DNA from: Candidatus Marinacidobacterales bacterium
Lineage (GTDB): Bacteria > Acidobacteriota > Vicinamibacteria > Marinacidobacterales > SMYC01
DNA: 64,000 nucleotides
NCBI GenBank assembly: GCA_965224085.1
Contig: CBDCYI010000011.1
Coordinates: forward strand, 1,184,001-1,248,000
Direction of reading: 5' to 3'
The translations under genes and the position numbers were made by a program. The notes under the pieces were generated by a model. It did not search any database, was not told the DNA's origin, and was given only the letters and a program-made list of their open reading frames with translations. Position 1 is the stretch's first letter, and every line of letters begins with the position of its first letter. Positions 2,882 through 8,477 of this stretch are shown one piece after another.

Positions 2882-4000
2882 CTACACCGCAACAAGAGGG
2901 GGTGGTTCAACTCTTCCCGGGCAGAGTTCATACGACGGCGCCGGTTCACCGACTCGGTCGGCTGAACGACGGTACGCGGCCATTTGCTCTTTGCCGAAGT
3001 CCAGCTCCGCCATGTACAAGTTGTGGCAGTGGCACATGAGCCGAATATTCTTCGCGCTACGATCGCCACCGAGTCCGTAAGCGTCGTTGTGATGGTACTC
3101 GAGCCGGTGGCGCTCGGGACATCGTTTGCCGTCAGGAGTGACGAACGTGCATCGCCCGCCATCTCGTGCCCACACGTAACGCTTCACCGCGGCAGCGATG
3201 CCACGCACACCCGGCGACGTGTCGGCGTCTTCGACTTTCGTTCTCGGATGATTCGTCTTCCCGAAACGCTTGGCTTCGAGCCGCTCGAGCTTCTCGCTCA
3301 CGGCCGCGTCGATGACCGAAGCGAGGTCACTGCCGGGAATGAGCGCCTCGAGCCGCTGGAGCTTGTCGCGAAGCGCGGCGCTAGCCGTGAACCGTACTTC
3401 GAAACGCGCCGGCGAAAGTGGCGCGACCGCCGGCCGCTTTTCAGGGATCGCCGGAGCGGCCGGAGGCGGCTCCGGCTCCTCGCGCGTGACAGCTCTGTCC
3501 GGGAAGAGTTCGTCCGACGATTCGGACGATTTGGACCGGGCCTGCCGTTGCGGCCTCTTTCGAATCGTCGGTGGAACATCCGGTTTCGGAGCCAACTCCG
3601 CCACGAGCTCTTCGAGGGCACGTTTGCTCTTGTGAGTGGCTCTTGCCAAGACCTCTTCGCAATTGGCCTCGGTGAGATGCTTTGAGATCACGGTGATACC
3701 ACACAAATGAATGCGACCATCCTCGAGCATCGCGAGGAGCATGGGAAATCTGCGTGACAGCCGAGCGGCGCTGATTCGCCGATAAGCTTCCGCTTCAGAT
3801 AAATGTAAAACGTCCATGCAGTAGCTGAACATCGACGGCGAAGCTTCTTTGGCGTAGAGACGCCGCGCATCGACTTCAGCGATATGCGCGACGAGCACAG
3901 CCTCGCCACGCCGCGACTGTTTCGAGACATCCGCCAGTCGAACAAGAAGCTCGTCATCCGATAATGCCGAGAGCGATTTCAAATCGTCCTTTGTGCTCAT
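2882..4000 (-). CDS. DUF222-like domain plus C-terminal HNH endonuclease
   Basis: N-terminal LVAHIAEVDARRLY...SMFSYC...LSEAEAYRRI.AARL; C-terminal VWARDGGRC...C...LEYHH...N...C.CHN (HNH). Confidence 0.85.
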   Translation of the reverse strand: MSTKDDLKSLSALSDDELLVRLADVSKQSRRGEAVLVAHIAEVDARRLYAKEASPSMFSYCMDVLHLSEAEAYRRISAARLSRRFPMLLAMLEDGRIHLCGITVISKHLTEANCEEVLARATHKSKRALEELVAELAPKPDVPPTIRKRPQRQARSKSSESSDELFPDRAVTREEPEPPPAAPAIPEKRPAVAPLSPARFEVRFTASAALRDKLQRLEALIPGSDLASVIDAAVSEKLERLEAKRFGKTNHPRTKVEDADTSPGVRGIAAAVKRYVWARDGGRCTFVTPDGKRCPERHRLEYHHNDAYGLGGDRSAKNIRLMCHCHNLYMAELDFGKEQMAAYRRSADRVGEPAPSYELCPGRVEPPPLVAV

Positions 4001-4238
4001 AGGTTCTTATAGCACGGACTTTTTCGACGCTCACAGTTCCAGCGTGATCCACACCAACGCGCCGAAACACTTTCGAAGTCTCCTCGAACGAGAGAGCATG
4101 GCTGTCGCTTCGTTGCCGTACACAGAGACCCCCAACGGATCGAGCGCGAGGTCTTTTTGCAAATCGCGTGCAAAAATCCGTCAAGGAGAAAATGGGTCCG
4201 GACCGAACTTTTATTCAACTCTTCCCGGGAAGAGTTGA
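2909..4238. repeat. Three copies of a 20-24-bp palindrome (core AACTCTTCCCGGGAAGAGTT) at 2909-2928, 3491-3510 and 4215-4238
   Basis: 4215-4238 TCAACTCTTCCCGGGAAGAGTTGA is a perfect palindrome. 2909-2928 AACTCTTCCCGGGCAGAGTT and 3491-3510 AGCTCTGTCCGGGAAGAGTT are variants. Confidence 0.85.
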
Positions 4239-4373
4239 CGTTCACTCGGCAGAATCAAAACGATACTGGCGCCCGGAAACGCGGGACTTCAACGTGCTTT
4301 TACGACCTCGATCCGCTCTTCCCGATCGAAGACTGAGAGGCCATAATGTCTCGTTCGGAGAAAGGAGATTCTC

Positions 4374-4856
4374 ATGGTTCCAGCCATCCAGCCCACGGTG
4401 CAGCTGTTCAAAGTCAGCCAGCACCTCTTCCGTCGAGCTCTAAAGGATCTCGAGCCCGAGGCGCTCAAACGCCACCCCGCCGAATCGAACCCCATGATAT
4501 GGCTAGCAGGACATGTGACCCATGCGCGTATCGGCCTATCCAAAATCACTGGCGGCGAGCGGGAGCTTCTATGGCGGGAGCTCTTCGGCCGCCACTCACA
4601 TTTTCGCGACGACGGAGACTATCCAGGTCTCTCGGAGATCCAGAAGGTCTTTGCCGAAGTCACCGATGAGCTGACCGAGCGCTTCGGGAGCCTCACGGAA
4701 GAAGAGTTCGCCAAACCTTCGGGCTACGACGCCCCTATCGAGGATAAAAGCGTCGCAGGCACGATCACGTTTTTCGCCTACCACGAGTCGTACCATGTCG
4801 GTCAGATGGCCTATGTCCGAAAGTGGTTGGGTCGGGGCGGGATTATCGACGGTTGA
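4374..4856 (+). CDS. DinB/DUF664 family protein
   Basis: N.MIWLAGHV...HESYHVGQM metal-binding His pattern; AAAGGAG RBS. Confidence 0.9.
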   Translation: MVPAIQPTVQLFKVSQHLFRRALKDLEPEALKRHPAESNPMIWLAGHVTHARIGLSKITGGERELLWRELFGRHSHFRDDGDYPGLSEIQKVFAEVTDELTERFGSLTEEEFAKPSGYDAPIEDKSVAGTITFFAYHESYHVGQMAYVRKWLGRGGIIDG

Positions 4857-4858
4857 AG

Positions 4859-4900
4859 TGTCAATAAATTGTTGACAGTAATGATTTTTACCGCTACCAT
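4859..4900 (+). promoter_or_regulatory. Sigma70 promoter for the tRNA array, with a palindromic operator over the -35 box
   Basis: TTGACA (4872-4877), 17-nt spacer, TACCAT (4895-4900). Inverted repeat TGTCAA-N7-TTGACA at 4859-4877. Confidence 0.8.
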
Positions 4901-4921
4901 GAAGACCAGTTGGTGAAAGAT

Positions 4922-5011
4922 ATGTTGATGCAGCGTCCAAAGGATTGGCTAGGCCAAGGTCGGGGTTTCCGCCCGGATAGTAATGGCCTCGAGGGGGTTG
5001 CTGACTACTGA
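4922..5011 (+). CDS. Putative leader peptide, 29 aa (MLMQRPKDWLGQGRGFRPDSNGLEGVADY)
   Basis: Short ORF between the promoter and the terminator. Its last codons cover the predicted antiterminator strand. RBS is weak. Confidence 0.5.
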   Translation: MLMQRPKDWLGQGRGFRPDSNGLEGVADY

Positions 5012-5035
5012 CGTAAAACAGCCAGTCACAAGGGC

Positions 5036-5068
5036 GCCCACCTCGGAAGCAACCGAGGTGGGCTTTTT
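5036..5068 (+). terminator. Intrinsic terminator/attenuator upstream of the tRNA genes
   Basis: 11-bp stem GCCCACCTCGG / CCGAGGTGGGC, loop AAGCAA, followed by TTTTT. Confidence 0.88.
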
Positions 5069-5147
5069 GCATTTAGGGGACTTTTTCTTGAGAAACGCAG
5101 TCGTTCAAACGGTGGAGGTGTGCCCAAGCGGCGCGACTCTTCTCAGA

Positions 5148-5225
5148 GGCTTCGCGGAGCAGCCAGGAGTGCTCGTCCGGTTGTCAGCCGGAAGGTCGCG
5201 GGTTCGAATCCCGCCGGAGCCGCCA
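5148..5225 (+). tRNA. tRNA-Asp(GTC), atypical (C at position 8)
   Basis: Acceptor GGCTTCG/CGGAGCC, D stem GAGC/GCTC, anticodon arm TCCGG-TTGTCAG-CCGGA, T arm GCGGG-TTCGAAT-CCCGC, G73 and encoded CCA. Confidence 0.88.
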
Positions 5226-5232
5226 TTTTCGT

Positions 5233-5309
5233 CGGAGTGTAGCGCAGACTGGCAGCGCGCCCGGCTTGGGACCGGGAGGCCGATGGTTCGAATCCATCCG
5301 CTCCGACCA
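5233..5309 (+). tRNA. tRNA-Pro(TGG)
   Basis: Acceptor CGGAGTG/CGCTCCG, anticodon arm CCCGG-CTTGGGA-CCGGG, T arm GATGG-TTCGAAT-CCATC, A73 and CCA. Confidence 0.92.
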
Positions 5310-5322
5310 GTTTGTGTTCGAT

Positions 5323-5397
5323 TGAGGCGTGGTCGATGGGTAAGGCACCCGGTTGTTACCCGGGCTCATGTAGGTGCGAATCCTACCGCGGCTTCCA
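5323..5397 (+). tRNA. Degenerate tRNA, anticodon GTT (Asn); probable pseudo-tRNA
   Basis: Anticodon arm CCCGG-TTGTTAC-CCGGG and T stem GTAGG/CCTAC are intact and CCA is present. T loop is TGCGAAT and the acceptor stem has 3 mismatches. Confidence 0.65.
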
Positions 5398-5421
5398 TCG
5401 TAGGAATGCAAGTTGGCTCGA

Positions 5422-5503
5422 GCGGCCGTGGTGTCTACGGTCAGCATGCCTGGATGCCATCCAGTCGGTGTCTTTTTCAGTTCGAATCCGTTCGCTCGCT
5501 CCA
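5422..5503 (+). tRNA. Degenerate tRNA-Gly(GCC); probable pseudo-tRNA
   Basis: Acceptor GCGGCCG/CGCTCGC, GCC in the anticodon loop, TTCGAAT loop, T73-CCA. The T stem is disrupted by a T-rich stretch. Confidence 0.6.
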
Positions 5504-5516
5504 AGAGGCCTGCTAG

Positions 5517-7206
5517 CTAGTACCCGTCCTGACAGGTGTAAGAGGTTGAGAAAAAAGGGGTAATCGCAAATTTAGGGCTAGCCTTCTGAGGGAGTGTCGT
5601 TTAGTATCGAGTCGACAAAAACGCAGATTCTAAACGACTTAACTCCAAAGGAGACCAGCCCTAAATGCGAAAAACGATCAACCCACAACCAAGCCTTCGC
5701 GAGCCCTGGCTGGAGCTGGAGCACGCACGCGAACTCGAAACGATATCATCGCTGCTCGATGCCCATCCTAAGCTCAATGAGCTGGTACTGCAAGACCTGA
5801 GGTCGGTCACCCCATCGGCAGGGAGCGATGTTGGTCGTGGGGGAATGAGCGCGGAGCAGGTTCTCCGGGCGTTGTTGGTCAAGCAGCTGAATCAGTTCAC
5901 CTATCGGGAGCTGGCGTTTCACTTGGCAGACTCTCGAAGCTATCGGACGTTTTGCCAGCTCGGCATCATAGAGCCGAGCCCGTCGAAGTCGACCCTAGCA
6001 GCAAACATCAAAGCCGTGAAGTTCGAAACGCTGGAGAAAATCAACCGAGAGCTGGTGAGTGTTGCCGAGAAGACCGCGATCGAAAAAGGAAGAAAAGTAC
6101 GAGTGGACTGCACGGTAGTGGAGTCGAATATTCATTCTCCTACGGACTCCGAGCTTCTTTATGACTGCGTCCGAGTTCTCACTCGCCTCATGTGCCGAAC
6201 TCGCGAACTGCTGGGTACAGTAGTGGTCTTCGGCAATCGAACGCGTCGAGCGAAGAGACGTCGACTGGGAGTTCTAAACGCGAAGGATAAGGAACAAAGG
6301 CGTCGCGTCTATCGAGATCTACTGAAGGTGTCGGAAGAAACCTATCGCTCCGCTCAACGCGTTGCAGACCAGTTGGACGAGTCCGGCTTGACCGAGCCGG
6401 TGAAGCGAGCGAGTGCGGAGAAGATCGCCGCGGATTTTAAGCACTTTCTCGTCCTCACCGAAAAAGTCATCAACCAAACTCGGCGTAGAGTGATTGATGA
6501 AGAGCGTGTGCCTGCGGAGGAAAAGGTCGTTTCGATCTTCGAAGAACACACCGACATTATTCGCAAAGACCGGCGCGAGACTCTCTACGGTCACAAGGTG
6601 TGTTTGACTGGTGGCTCGTCCTCGATGATTTTGGATTGCGTGATCTTGGATGGGAATCCGTCCGATTCAACTCTCGCGGAAACCATGATCGACCGTCAAG
6701 TCGAACTCTACGAACGGGCCCCGCGCCAGGTTGCCTACGATGGCGCGTTTTCTTCAAAGGCAAACTTGGAAGCCATCAAAGGCAAGGGAGTTGAAGATGT
6801 TGCCTTTACCAAGGCTCACTTCGCGGTGACCGATATGGTCAAGAGTTCCTGGGTCTATCAACGCCTACGGCGATTTCGCTGCGGAATCGAAGGCGTCATT
6901 TCGTTCTTGAAACGAGTCTTTGGTCTCGACCGATGCACATGGCGCTCATTGCCTTCTTTCAAATCCTACGTATGGAGTTCCATCATCACCTGCAACCTGT
7001 TGGTAATGGCAAGGCACCTATTACGATAATAATGATTGCTCTTACTGCGTTTATAGCCATGGATTGCTGACGATTCGCCTCTCGTTTCGTCCAAGATTTT
7101 CATTCGCTTCCGAGCCTACGAGGTGCCGACTGAAAACGTATAATACCCACATCTTCGATAGGCCTCTCGTACACCACAAGTTATGGTGTTTCTGGACAGG
7201 AACTAG
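5517..7206 (+). mobile_element. Complete insertion sequence (ISNCY/IS5-like DDE)
   Basis: Imperfect TIRs CTAGTACCCGTCCTGACA and TTTCTGGACAGGAACTAG. CTAG is duplicated on both flanks (5513-5516 and 7207-7210). Confidence 0.85.
5665..7029 (+). CDS. DDE transposase (ISNCY/IS5-like), 454 aa
   Basis: VRVDCTVVESNIHSPTDS, SIFEEHTDIIRK, AYDGAF and R.GIEGVIS.LKR motifs; AAGGAG RBS. Confidence 0.93.
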   Translation: MRKTINPQPSLREPWLELEHARELETISSLLDAHPKLNELVLQDLRSVTPSAGSDVGRGGMSAEQVLRALLVKQLNQFTYRELAFHLADSRSYRTFCQLGIIEPSPSKSTLAANIKAVKFETLEKINRELVSVAEKTAIEKGRKVRVDCTVVESNIHSPTDSELLYDCVRVLTRLMCRTRELLGTVVVFGNRTRRAKRRRLGVLNAKDKEQRRRVYRDLLKVSEETYRSAQRVADQLDESGLTEPVKRASAEKIAADFKHFLVLTEKVINQTRRRVIDEERVPAEEKVVSIFEEHTDIIRKDRRETLYGHKVCLTGGSSSMILDCVILDGNPSDSTLAETMIDRQVELYERAPRQVAYDGAFSSKANLEAIKGKGVEDVAFTKAHFAVTDMVKSSWVYQRLRRFRCGIEGVISFLKRVFGLDRCTWRSLPSFKSYVWSSIITCNLLVMARHLLR

Positions 7207-7290
7207 CTAGAGGCTGTTGCAAAAGCCCGTTTAGCGTCAAGGCGTTCATTTGTTTGAGCACAGGAGTGAGGCCGTTGGTTGTACTGCTTG

Positions 7291-7636
7291 TTAGGAACGC
7301 GCCTGTCGGGCACGGTCGAGCGTATTTTGCTTGTTGATGTCCGCGAGTTCTCGCAGACAATCCTGCAAGCTCTGCCATGCGGCGACGCCTTCGCGGATAC
7401 GCTTGTGTGCGGCTTGGGGCACATAGTAGCCGGTAGTCTTGCCGTGCTTGCCACGAAAATTGATATAGAGGTGAGGGCCATGCTTTGGCCCGGGCCCGTG
7501 GCACCGACAAGTGGGCGTACCGCAGGTACGATAGGTTTCGGAGGGTGTGCCGAAGATCGCCCTTCGCGCATATTGTTGAATCTGTTGTAGGAGCTGGTCC
7601 CGACGTTTACGTGGATCGGAATGAAGGGTTCGGCAT
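7291..7636 (-). pseudogene. DUF6788-like small protein (IS-associated), frameshifted near its start
   Basis: CGTPTCRC..G.KHGP.LY Cys/His motif. The ATG at 7636 is out of frame with the body of the gene by one base. Confidence 0.65.
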
Positions 7637-8477
7637 TTTCGCTGTCCTTTCTTCGCCGCTTGACTCGAGCGATCGATATGAGGTTTTGGCTGATAACGCA
7701 CCACCCGACGTAACGCTTGAATCCTCGGTCGCCCTTGTAGGTGGCGCGAAGCATAGCGAAGCGGTGCTTGAGGGTGCTGATGCGGGACTCGACGCCCCCG
7801 CGCCACTTGAGGGCTCGACGGAACCAGCGCTTTTTTTGAACCTTGGCTCGTTTTTTCGAGGGTCGTCCTCGAGCCGGCAACACCACTTTCTTTACACCGA
7901 GATCTATGGCCTTGCGTTCATTGTCTGCCGAAAAGAATCCGCGGTCAGCGGTCGCCATCTCCGGCGCACGAGCGAACTGTTTTTTGTGTTGCTCCAGCGC
8001 GGGCATCCACTGAGTTTGGTCCGCCGGATTGCCTGCGGCAACTTCGTAGTGGCTAACAATGCCGTTCTCCACCTCATCAATTCGCACGAGTCGTCCAAAC
8101 TCGGTCGGCTTCCATGTTTTGCCTTTTCGGATCACGGCCGTATGCTCCTCGAACAGGCTGACGATCTTGTCCGGATGGTGACGATGGCCCCCTAAAACAC
8201 GGGCCTTTGTCTGAGCTAACACCTTTTTGCACAGTGGCAGATAATGTTCGAGTTGGCTCTGATTGCTTATGATGCTCACCAGCGAACCCACGACCGGAAG
8301 CTTTCCGCTCTTGAGCGACTGAATAACCTCGTCGGCTTGCCGGACCACGCTGCGCGCCGTGCCCATGAGCTTGCGATAACTTTGCTTGAACTTGACTTGG
8401 CTCGATTCGGTGAACGACTTGCTGGCGCGGTCGATCTCAAGCTGCCTGTTTTTCGTTGATCGGCTGTGGTCCACCAC
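7607..8477 (-). pseudogene. Second ISNCY/IS5-like transposase, 5'-truncated (ends approximate)
   Basis: DKIVSLFEEHT.VIRKGK..K.TEFG, ATADRGF and R.GVESRIS.LK motifs. The N-terminal part is absent, and the ORF reads through into the DUF6788 region. Probable IS end near 7210 (GAGGCTGTTGCAAAA). Confidence 0.8.

Follow-up and report, generated by a model that had tools for sequence, protein, structure and literature searches.

What decides whether a bacterium transcribes a set of spare transfer RNA (tRNA) genes? The question is raised by positions 4859–5068 of a 64,000-nt stretch of DNA from a Candidatus Marinacidobacterales bacterium (the whole stretch is here called the window, its genome G000), where a promoter, a short upstream open reading frame (uORF) and a strong intrinsic terminator precede an array of accessory tRNA genes. 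Our analysis indicates that this segment is probably the control region of the array. The reading that we favor is that a conditional terminator stands before the spare tRNAs, that an antiterminator sets it, and that a ribosome on the uORF is the sensor; to this statement as a whole we assign a probability of roughly 0.4. Gating of the array by a conditional terminator is the part that we would rather believe than not, and the ribosome is our best single candidate, tentatively put forward, for the sensor of the switch. What we infer is that cells actually use this switch and that it is set by the ribosome.

In the proposed mechanism, the strong sigma-70-type promoter at 4872–4900 would start a leader RNA of ~165 nt that ends in the terminator at 5036–5068, and the downstream tRNAs would be made only if RNA polymerase passes this terminator. 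The G-rich motif UCGAGGGGGU (4989–4998, extended by 5000–5006) is predicted to mimic the 3′ arm of the terminator and, once the 5′ arm at 5036–5046 has been transcribed, to capture it, which would block the terminator hairpin. A ribosome that paces the polymerase into the last ~10 codons of the uORF or its stop codon would cover the motif, so that the terminator would form and transcription would end. If initiation or elongation lags, the motif would be left free, the antiterminator would form, and the spare tRNAs would be transcribed. A further step, which we hold to be rather doubtful, would make the unit a sensor of translation capacity, in which ribosome lag on the short frame, caused by shortage or damage of tRNAs, by ribosome-targeting compounds or by poor initiation, would turn on the spare tRNAs (Asp, Pro, Asn, Gln, Arg).

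A terminator and a predicted competing fold ahead of the tRNA genes

Conservation analysis used four full sequences, i.e., the window, the metagenome contig L045, G003 (same genus) and G012 (another genus of the same family), together with X10 and X13, which are variants from sequencing-run contigs. Both the promoter and the terminator are retained in all four full sequences. The units of L045, G003 and G012 begin with the same promoter as the window (in G012 with the −10 box TACTAT), and BLAST and alignment show that the homology between window and G003 starts just 5′ of it. Immediately 5′ of the −35 box, each of the four loci carries an A-rich tract that may be UP-element-like. A scan for sigma-70-like promoters returned 2 sites in 2.5 kb compared to 0.8 expected. 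Strong intrinsic terminators of the classic kind are scarce in this organism: a search of the 6.87-Mb genome yielded 29 whose perfect stem has 8 bp or more (6 or more G-C) ahead of a run of T5 or longer.

The original prediction placed the terminator between promoter and tRNA genes, and this is true at all four loci, where the promoter of the leader is the sole recognizable sigma-70-type promoter. A second plus-strand promoter between terminator and tRNAs was found at none of them by a scan limited to sigma-70-type sites. The first tRNA of G012 starts 6 nt past the T-run, and the tRNAs of G012 are therefore obtainable through read-through alone. Moreover, the leader is followed by accessory tRNAs in six of six instances (window, G003, G012, L045, X10 and X13), with the loose contig ends of X10 and X13 continuing into tRNA-Asp sequence. 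The first tRNA after the leader is Asp in four loci and Asn in G012.

When the RNA is folded as far as the terminator loop, an antiterminator is predicted in which UCGAGG (4989–4994) pairs with CCUCGG (5041–5046), GGGU (4995–4998) with GCCC (5036–5039), and GCU (5000–5002) with GGC (5033–5035), closing over an inner hairpin at 5003–5027. This architecture is common to the folds of all four full sequences, and the inner hairpin is predicted in each of them as well, with non-homologous pairs (CUAC/GUAG in G003 and G012). Apart from promoter and terminator, the 5′ strand of the antiterminator is the best-conserved segment of the leader. Between window and G003 there is no difference at positions 4982–5003, which are largely kept in G012 as well, whose leader is rewritten in its 5′ half. 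In the core helix of the antiterminator, 38 of 40 cells are paired, and both unpaired cells belong to G012.

Across the four sequences, the antiterminator has predicted energies of −24.2, −23.3, −26.9 and −31.9 kcal/mol, compared to −24.9, −24.9, −19.2 and −24.0 kcal/mol for the terminator hairpins (−24.9 kcal/mol being the value of the window). When the 50 nt upstream were dinucleotide-shuffled 400 times, the observed gain in arm-pairing energy was reached in 1.0%, 2.5%, 0.5% and 0% of cases, respectively. An alternative structure that excludes the terminator is, according to these predictions, conserved and stable.

All features of the original prediction could be read at their coordinates, and its complementarities are exact (GGTTGCT at 4996–5002 with AGCAACC at 5048–5054, CCTCG at 4987–4991 with CGAGG at 5054–5058, and TGACT at 5002–5006 with AGTCA at 5024–5028). 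Its claim of a structure that cannot coexist with the terminator was upheld insofar as such an alternative exists, is conserved and beats shuffled sequence, but the pairing named for it, GGTTGCT with AGCAACC, was not retained. As a conserved antiterminator this pairing had to be rejected: it is intact in the window and the near-identical X10 alone, and broken without compensation in L045 (GGTTTTC), X13, G003 (loop AGCAAAC) and G012 (both sides).

What might set the proposed switch

The uORF by itself is not remarkable. It is open in all five close variants, with 29 codons in the window and X10, 32 in L045 and X13 (the latter read by hand from the table of differences) and 35 in G003, and its two indels, of 9 nt and 3 nt, are both multiples of three. 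Under random substitution, the probability that the ATG is kept and no new stop arises is 0.46 for 11 changes and 0.32 for 16 changes; together with the two in-frame indels, we estimate the chance at a few percent. The frame overlaps the 5′ strand of the antiterminator in the window, X10, L045, X13 and G003, and in the window, L045 and G003 the inner hairpin contains its stop codon. In line with the proposed mechanism, the minimum-energy nascent fold of the window keeps the antiterminator if a ribosome is absent or masked at codons 5–16, and loses it if the ribosome is masked at codon 20 or the stop, where the fold energy changes from −48.3 to −32.1 kcal/mol.

A number of observations weigh against a switch that is set by the ribosome. 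In G012, the sole distant homolog, the frame from the aligned ATG comprises 12 codons and ends ~60 nt short of the motif (2 of its 12 codons match amino acids of the array, counted by hand), and the frame across the motif, open for 42 codons, has TTG as its sole possible start, with no ATG or GTG. A modeled ribosome on this short uORF does not contact the antiterminator; because the frame stops short of the motif, the model predicts the antiterminator there regardless of the ribosome. The uORF of the window has no typical Shine-Dalgarno sequence. It is preceded by GGTGA 5 nt upstream of the ATG, which X13 replaces by GATGA, and GGAG, GAGG and AGGA are enriched 5–7 fold before the genes of this genome, whereas GGTG and GTGA are not. 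The encoded peptide is not conserved: L045 differs from the window by 11 changes, of which 2 are synonymous, and changes at codon positions 1/2/3 number 3/3/5 in L045 and 3/5/8 in G003, summing to 6/8/13 with no significant excess at the third position. Codons for D, P, N, Q and R are weakly enriched in the frame (11 of 29 in the window, 15 of 32 in L045 and 14 of 35 in G003, against 0.253 in the proteome), and 11%, 2.6% and 9% of spurious frames match this content in the window, L045 and G003, respectively. With such weak enrichment (38–47% of the frame versus 25% of the proteome), a leader whose codons match the array is weakly supported.

Folding adds further counterevidence. Even when the stop is masked by a ribosome, the C-rich 5′ arm is predicted to pair elsewhere upstream with a mean probability of 0.41–0.84, and because the arm retains these other upstream partners, thermodynamic masking does not separate the two states cleanly. 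The antiterminator is matched in arm sequestration by 55, in energy gain by 50 and in both by 35 of the 1234 terminator-like hairpins of the genome, so that it ranks no better than the top 3–4.5% genome-wide. Its core shows no compensatory change, with 7 of 10 pairs invariant and no double change in the four sequences, and for this reason the support for the antiterminator is conservation and energy, not covariation. The comparison comprises four full sequences in total, three of which are close kin. The leader was found neither in 52 other genomes of the order nor in the 150 other genomes of a phylum sample. Finally, the array of the window has decayed to two intact tRNAs and one chimera followed by an insertion sequence (IS), and the switch may therefore no longer matter in this genome.

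The expectation that a ribosome at the leader stop masks the antiterminator thus agrees with the close variants, in which the uORF spans the 5′ strand and stays open, but not with G012, whose frame ends 60 nt early. The proposed comparison of leaders divides in the same way, with the missing covariation of the antiterminator on the negative side as well, and the proposed folds with and without a ribosome mask fit the idea in the minimum-energy structure but not in the pairing of the arm.

Could the same terminator/antiterminator switch respond to something other than the ribosome, so that the reading frame is incidental? Candidate triggers would be an RNA-binding protein, a small RNA or a tRNA on the invariant motif, or the speed of the polymerase as affected by nucleoside triphosphates (NTPs) or ppGpp. 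Such a trigger would fit a conserved core that is an RNA motif and not a frame: changes of the motif in G012 fall on codon positions 1, 2 and 3 alike, no ATG frame runs over it there, the uORF is without a typical Shine-Dalgarno sequence, and the motif is conserved in sequence beyond its ability to pair, as a binding site would be. However, there is no conserved aptamer-like 5′ domain, the 5′ half of G012 being strongly different, and no Rfam family, T-box included, matches 4900–5100 at E-values up to 1; cmscan of 3500–7500 yields three tRNA matches and a weak YrlA fragment within the tRNAs, and nothing else. A T-box-like reading was rejected on the lack of an Rfam match and of a conserved UGGN bulge in the antiterminator, as judged by eye. 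Moreover, with upstream genes that change from one locus to the next, the unit has no regulator gene as a constant companion, and a frame that stays open in all five close variants with both indels in frame would be unexpected if it were incidental. We regard a non-ribosome trigger as quite unlikely.

Promoter, structured RNA and strong terminator together also have the layout of a small-RNA gene, which might be free-standing, leak constitutively into the tRNAs and carry an alternative pairing of no regulatory role. The fold of the window RNA has a z-score of −2.9, its terminator state is favored at equilibrium (−65.1 versus −48.4 kcal/mol), and terminated attenuator RNAs can work in trans, e.g., rnTrpL. 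Yet the RNA is single-copy in its own genome and in none of the six instances lacks tRNAs behind it; its middle is poorly conserved, whereas its terminator-competing segment hardly varies, and the antiterminator beats shuffles in all four sequences. In G012, where the tRNA abuts the T-run, there is no other source of transcription. On balance we consider a small-RNA gene unlikely, but it and a switch with another sensor are both rivals to be taken seriously. Main control by a repressor at the promoter, with leader and terminator secondary, is in our judgment improbable. Such control of a spare tRNA operon is established for TrcR of Anabaena; the repressor postulated here would bind one of two inverted repeats, GTAA-N6-TTAC or TGTCAA/TTGACA. 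The promoter spacer that holds the former is unusually conserved, and the symmetry of the repeat survives a change on both sides in G012 (GTAG-N6-CTAC, L038 1079–1092), which is a single event. The G012 spacer also contains ATACTAC; compared by eye with the TrcR site TGTAGTAT (PMC10272220, section 9) in reverse complement, it agrees in 7 of 8 bases, whereas no match is obvious in the spacer of the window. For the TGTCAA/TTGACA repeat, whose right half is the −35 box and whose halves are separated by an A/T-rich tract, the original prediction of an operator-like palindrome is not supported by comparison. The GTCAA half-site is retained in G003 with spacing N7, as in the window, and in L045 with spacing N6; a 1-nt deletion at 4865 gives N6 in X10 as well, and G012 reads TGACAA at this position, so that the half-site is lost. 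We grade this repeat as a weak operator candidate. No ribbon-helix-helix gene was seen adjoining the unit, although no search was aimed at one. A repressor would moreover leave the conserved terminator and its competitor unexplained. Both layers could coexist, and a promoter-level repressor may act in addition to the leader. Weighing these alternatives, the ribosome-set terminator remains the reading that we prefer.

Distribution of the unit and state of the array

The leader is single-copy in G000. BLAST searches of 61 genomes, G000 included, detected the whole unit in G003 at 79% identity, and matches to promoter, terminator and tRNAs in G012. G001 carries the tRNA array on a contig that begins inside the array. 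The terminator pattern matches 3 of 19 genomes of the family, and a covariance model of the 3′ half of the leader, run on 55 genomes of the order, picks out the same 3 and, in G018, an ordinary gene terminator; G027 enters the BLAST and covariance-model counts solely as a genome without the leader. In the phylum sample of 151 genomes, the covariance model detects G000 and three terminator-only matches without tRNAs. Among metagenome contigs, the promoter pattern recovered L045, a close and intact unit with a DinB gene upstream as in the window, and a chance match within a gene (L044), which was discarded. The single match of the terminator pattern in the genome contig collection was likewise a chance match, within a coding region, and neither the promoter nor the terminator pattern had matches in the viral contig collection. 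The lone tRNA-Asn genes matched in family f2 and G058 belong to the housekeeping set and not to arrays. The X9 contig ends at 4934, and X11 did not align to this stretch. The unit is thus rare and patchy, as would be expected of accessory DNA.

Upstream genes differ from locus to locus. The original prediction pointed to the nearby arfB gene, but this proximity is not conserved: arfB and the array lie ~1 Mb apart in G003 and ~1.4 Mb in G012, and with a distance of 1 Mb or more in relatives, the proximity in the window is due to chance.

Table 1. Features of the leader region, the tRNA array and their surroundings in the window.
Feature	Position	Strand	Basis or remark
arfB	2191–2619	opposite	2.2 kb from the unit
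Inverted repeat TGTCAA-N7-TTGACA	4859–4877		TGTCAA 4859–4864, TTGACA 4872–4877
Sigma-70-type promoter TTGACA-17-TACCAT	4872–4900	+	10 of 12 positions match consensus
Inverted repeat GTAA-N6-TTAC in promoter spacer	4878–4891		Possible operator
Small 5′ hairpin ACC-AGUU-GGU	4905–4914	+	Folds; at presumed transcript start
uORF, 29 codons	4922–5011	+	ATG 4922, TGA 5009–5011; open reading frame read
5′ domain helix AGGCCA (4951–4956) / UGGCCU (4984–4989)	4951–4989	+	Folds; encloses variable-length hairpin 4959–4978
Conserved motif AAUGGCCUCGAGGGGGUUGCUGACUAC	4982–5008	+	5′ strand of predicted antiterminator; alignment and folds
Predicted inner hairpin	5003–5027	+	GACU 5003–5006/AGUC 5024–5027, CUG 5008–5010/CAG 5019–5021; contains uORF stop codon
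Intrinsic terminator	5036–5068	+	11-bp stem, 6-nt loop, TTTTT; stem-loop 5036–5063, 9 of 11 pairs G-C
Fragment like 5′ strand and D-arm of a long-arm (class II) tRNA	5113–5147	+	By eye; no ARAGORN call
tRNA-Asp (GTC), accessory	5148–5225	+	ARAGORN/Rfam, 49.6 bits; housekeeping gene at C11:462400
tRNA-Pro (TGG), accessory	5233–5309	+	ARAGORN/Rfam, 64.9 bits
Chimeric tRNA, called 'Asn-GTT'	5325–5397	+	Asn-GTT 5′ part and Gln-TTG 3′ part; alignment with intact arrays; cmscan 35 bits
IS transposase	5665–7029		DUF772 plus DDE_Tnp_1
Second DDE transposase	7203–8477	−	

The 5′ part of the leader is less uniform (Table 1). The stem of the small 5′ hairpin is predicted in several folds of L045 and G012 and in no fold of G003, where AUU/GGU could form wobble pairs at this site, as judged by eye. 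The equivalent of the 5′ domain helix in the G012 folds is GAGAC/GUCUC, and the 9-nt indel falls in the inner hairpin of this domain.

The genome has 57 tRNA genes, and Asp-GTC, Pro-TGG and Asn-GTT each have a housekeeping copy elsewhere; the tRNA-Pro of the array is 77% identical to its own copy, at C9:828717. In intact relatives the array consists of five tRNAs, Asp-Pro-Asn-Gln-Arg(GCG). The arrays of G003, G012 and the L045 organism are intact. Long tRNA arrays (L-arrays), or tRNA array units, are defined by 20 tRNA genes or more at high density (PMC4758250), and with five tRNAs in intact relatives and three calls in the window, this array lies below that threshold of at least 20. In the window, ~85 nt between the T-arms of Asn and Gln are deleted compared to L045 and G003, which leaves a chimeric tRNA whose acceptor stem no longer pairs (non-standard acceptor pairs). 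Further downstream, an insert of ~80 nt at ~5420–5499 that is present in neither L045 nor G003 contains the T-loop-like GTTCGAATCC and ends in ...CTCGCTCCA; it looks like a degenerate tRNA, with no ARAGORN or Rfam call. The tRNA-Arg(GCG) at 5507–5520 is interrupted after ~12 nt by the insertion sequence.

The class II tRNA-like fragment adjoins tRNA-Asp in the window, L045 (~2307–2349) and G003 (L039 ~1767–1801), and probably derives from an array member since lost. Between tRNA-Pro and tRNA-Asn, G003 (L039 1965–2005) and L045 (2515–2535) carry GAGAGRTTGA-like tandem units in varying number; the corresponding spacer of the window has almost none. Just 3′ of the G012 array, we noted by eye an apparent GIY-YIG-type nuclease gene (L038 1800–2000).

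Known attenuators and tRNA operons

Bacterial tRNA genes are usually described as constitutive or as controlled by growth rate at the promoter, and leader-peptide attenuators such as those of trp, his, leu, thr, ilv and pheA consist of a promoter, a short open reading frame, antiterminator and terminator hairpins that exclude each other, and a T-run; their genes are reached via read-through. The unit described here shares this layout, and in both cases a ribosome at the end of the leader frame favors (here: would favor) the terminator. In contrast to these attenuators, the genes controlled here would be tRNAs and not biosynthetic enzymes, the frame has no run of regulatory codons and covers the antiterminator strand itself, and it is not kept in the distant homolog G012. 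As no conserved 1:2 anti-antiterminator pairing was found, an untranslated leader is here predicted to read through and not to terminate.

In its logic of sensing, the proposed switch resembles the ribosome-mediated attenuation of antibiotic-response genes, i.e., vmlR (PMC9226507) and bmrCD (PMC4191407) of B. subtilis and the topAI uORF of E. coli (PMC12121999), where, as proposed for our uORF, the leader serves as a general sensor of slow translation and stalling opens downstream transcription. The genes downstream of these leaders encode resistance or toxin-antitoxin proteins, in contrast to the tRNAs of our array, and no stalling peptide motif is known or conserved in the uORF described here. 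With regard to the genes controlled, the counterpart is the trn operon of Anabaena, 26 genes on a megaplasmid that are induced by translational stress and whose −10 box is bound by the repressor TrcR (PMC8421152, PMC10272220). Both sets comprise silent or spare tRNAs that duplicate housekeeping isoacceptors, occur sporadically and are thought to be helpful under translation stress, but our array has five tRNAs at most, is chromosomal and lies behind a terminator. The main texts of the two Anabaena papers contain no occurrence of "attenuat-", "terminator" or "leader", and a full-text literature search, the scope of which excluded subscription journals and supplements, yielded no paper that joins tRNA arrays with attenuators or antiterminators.

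With a corrected antiterminator, the original interpretation, a known kind of control (the leader attenuator) applied to tRNA genes, is partly supported. If the unit is indeed a sensor of translation capacity, it might represent a widespread class of attenuators acting on tRNA genes, a class that we did not find in the literature searched. The Anabaena operon, the one spare tRNA operon that has been studied, is controlled by a repressor, and gating by a leader would be feedback of another, very direct kind, with tRNA supply determined by how translation fares. Finding out which conditions open the switch would then offer a handle on the purpose of accessory tRNA arrays.

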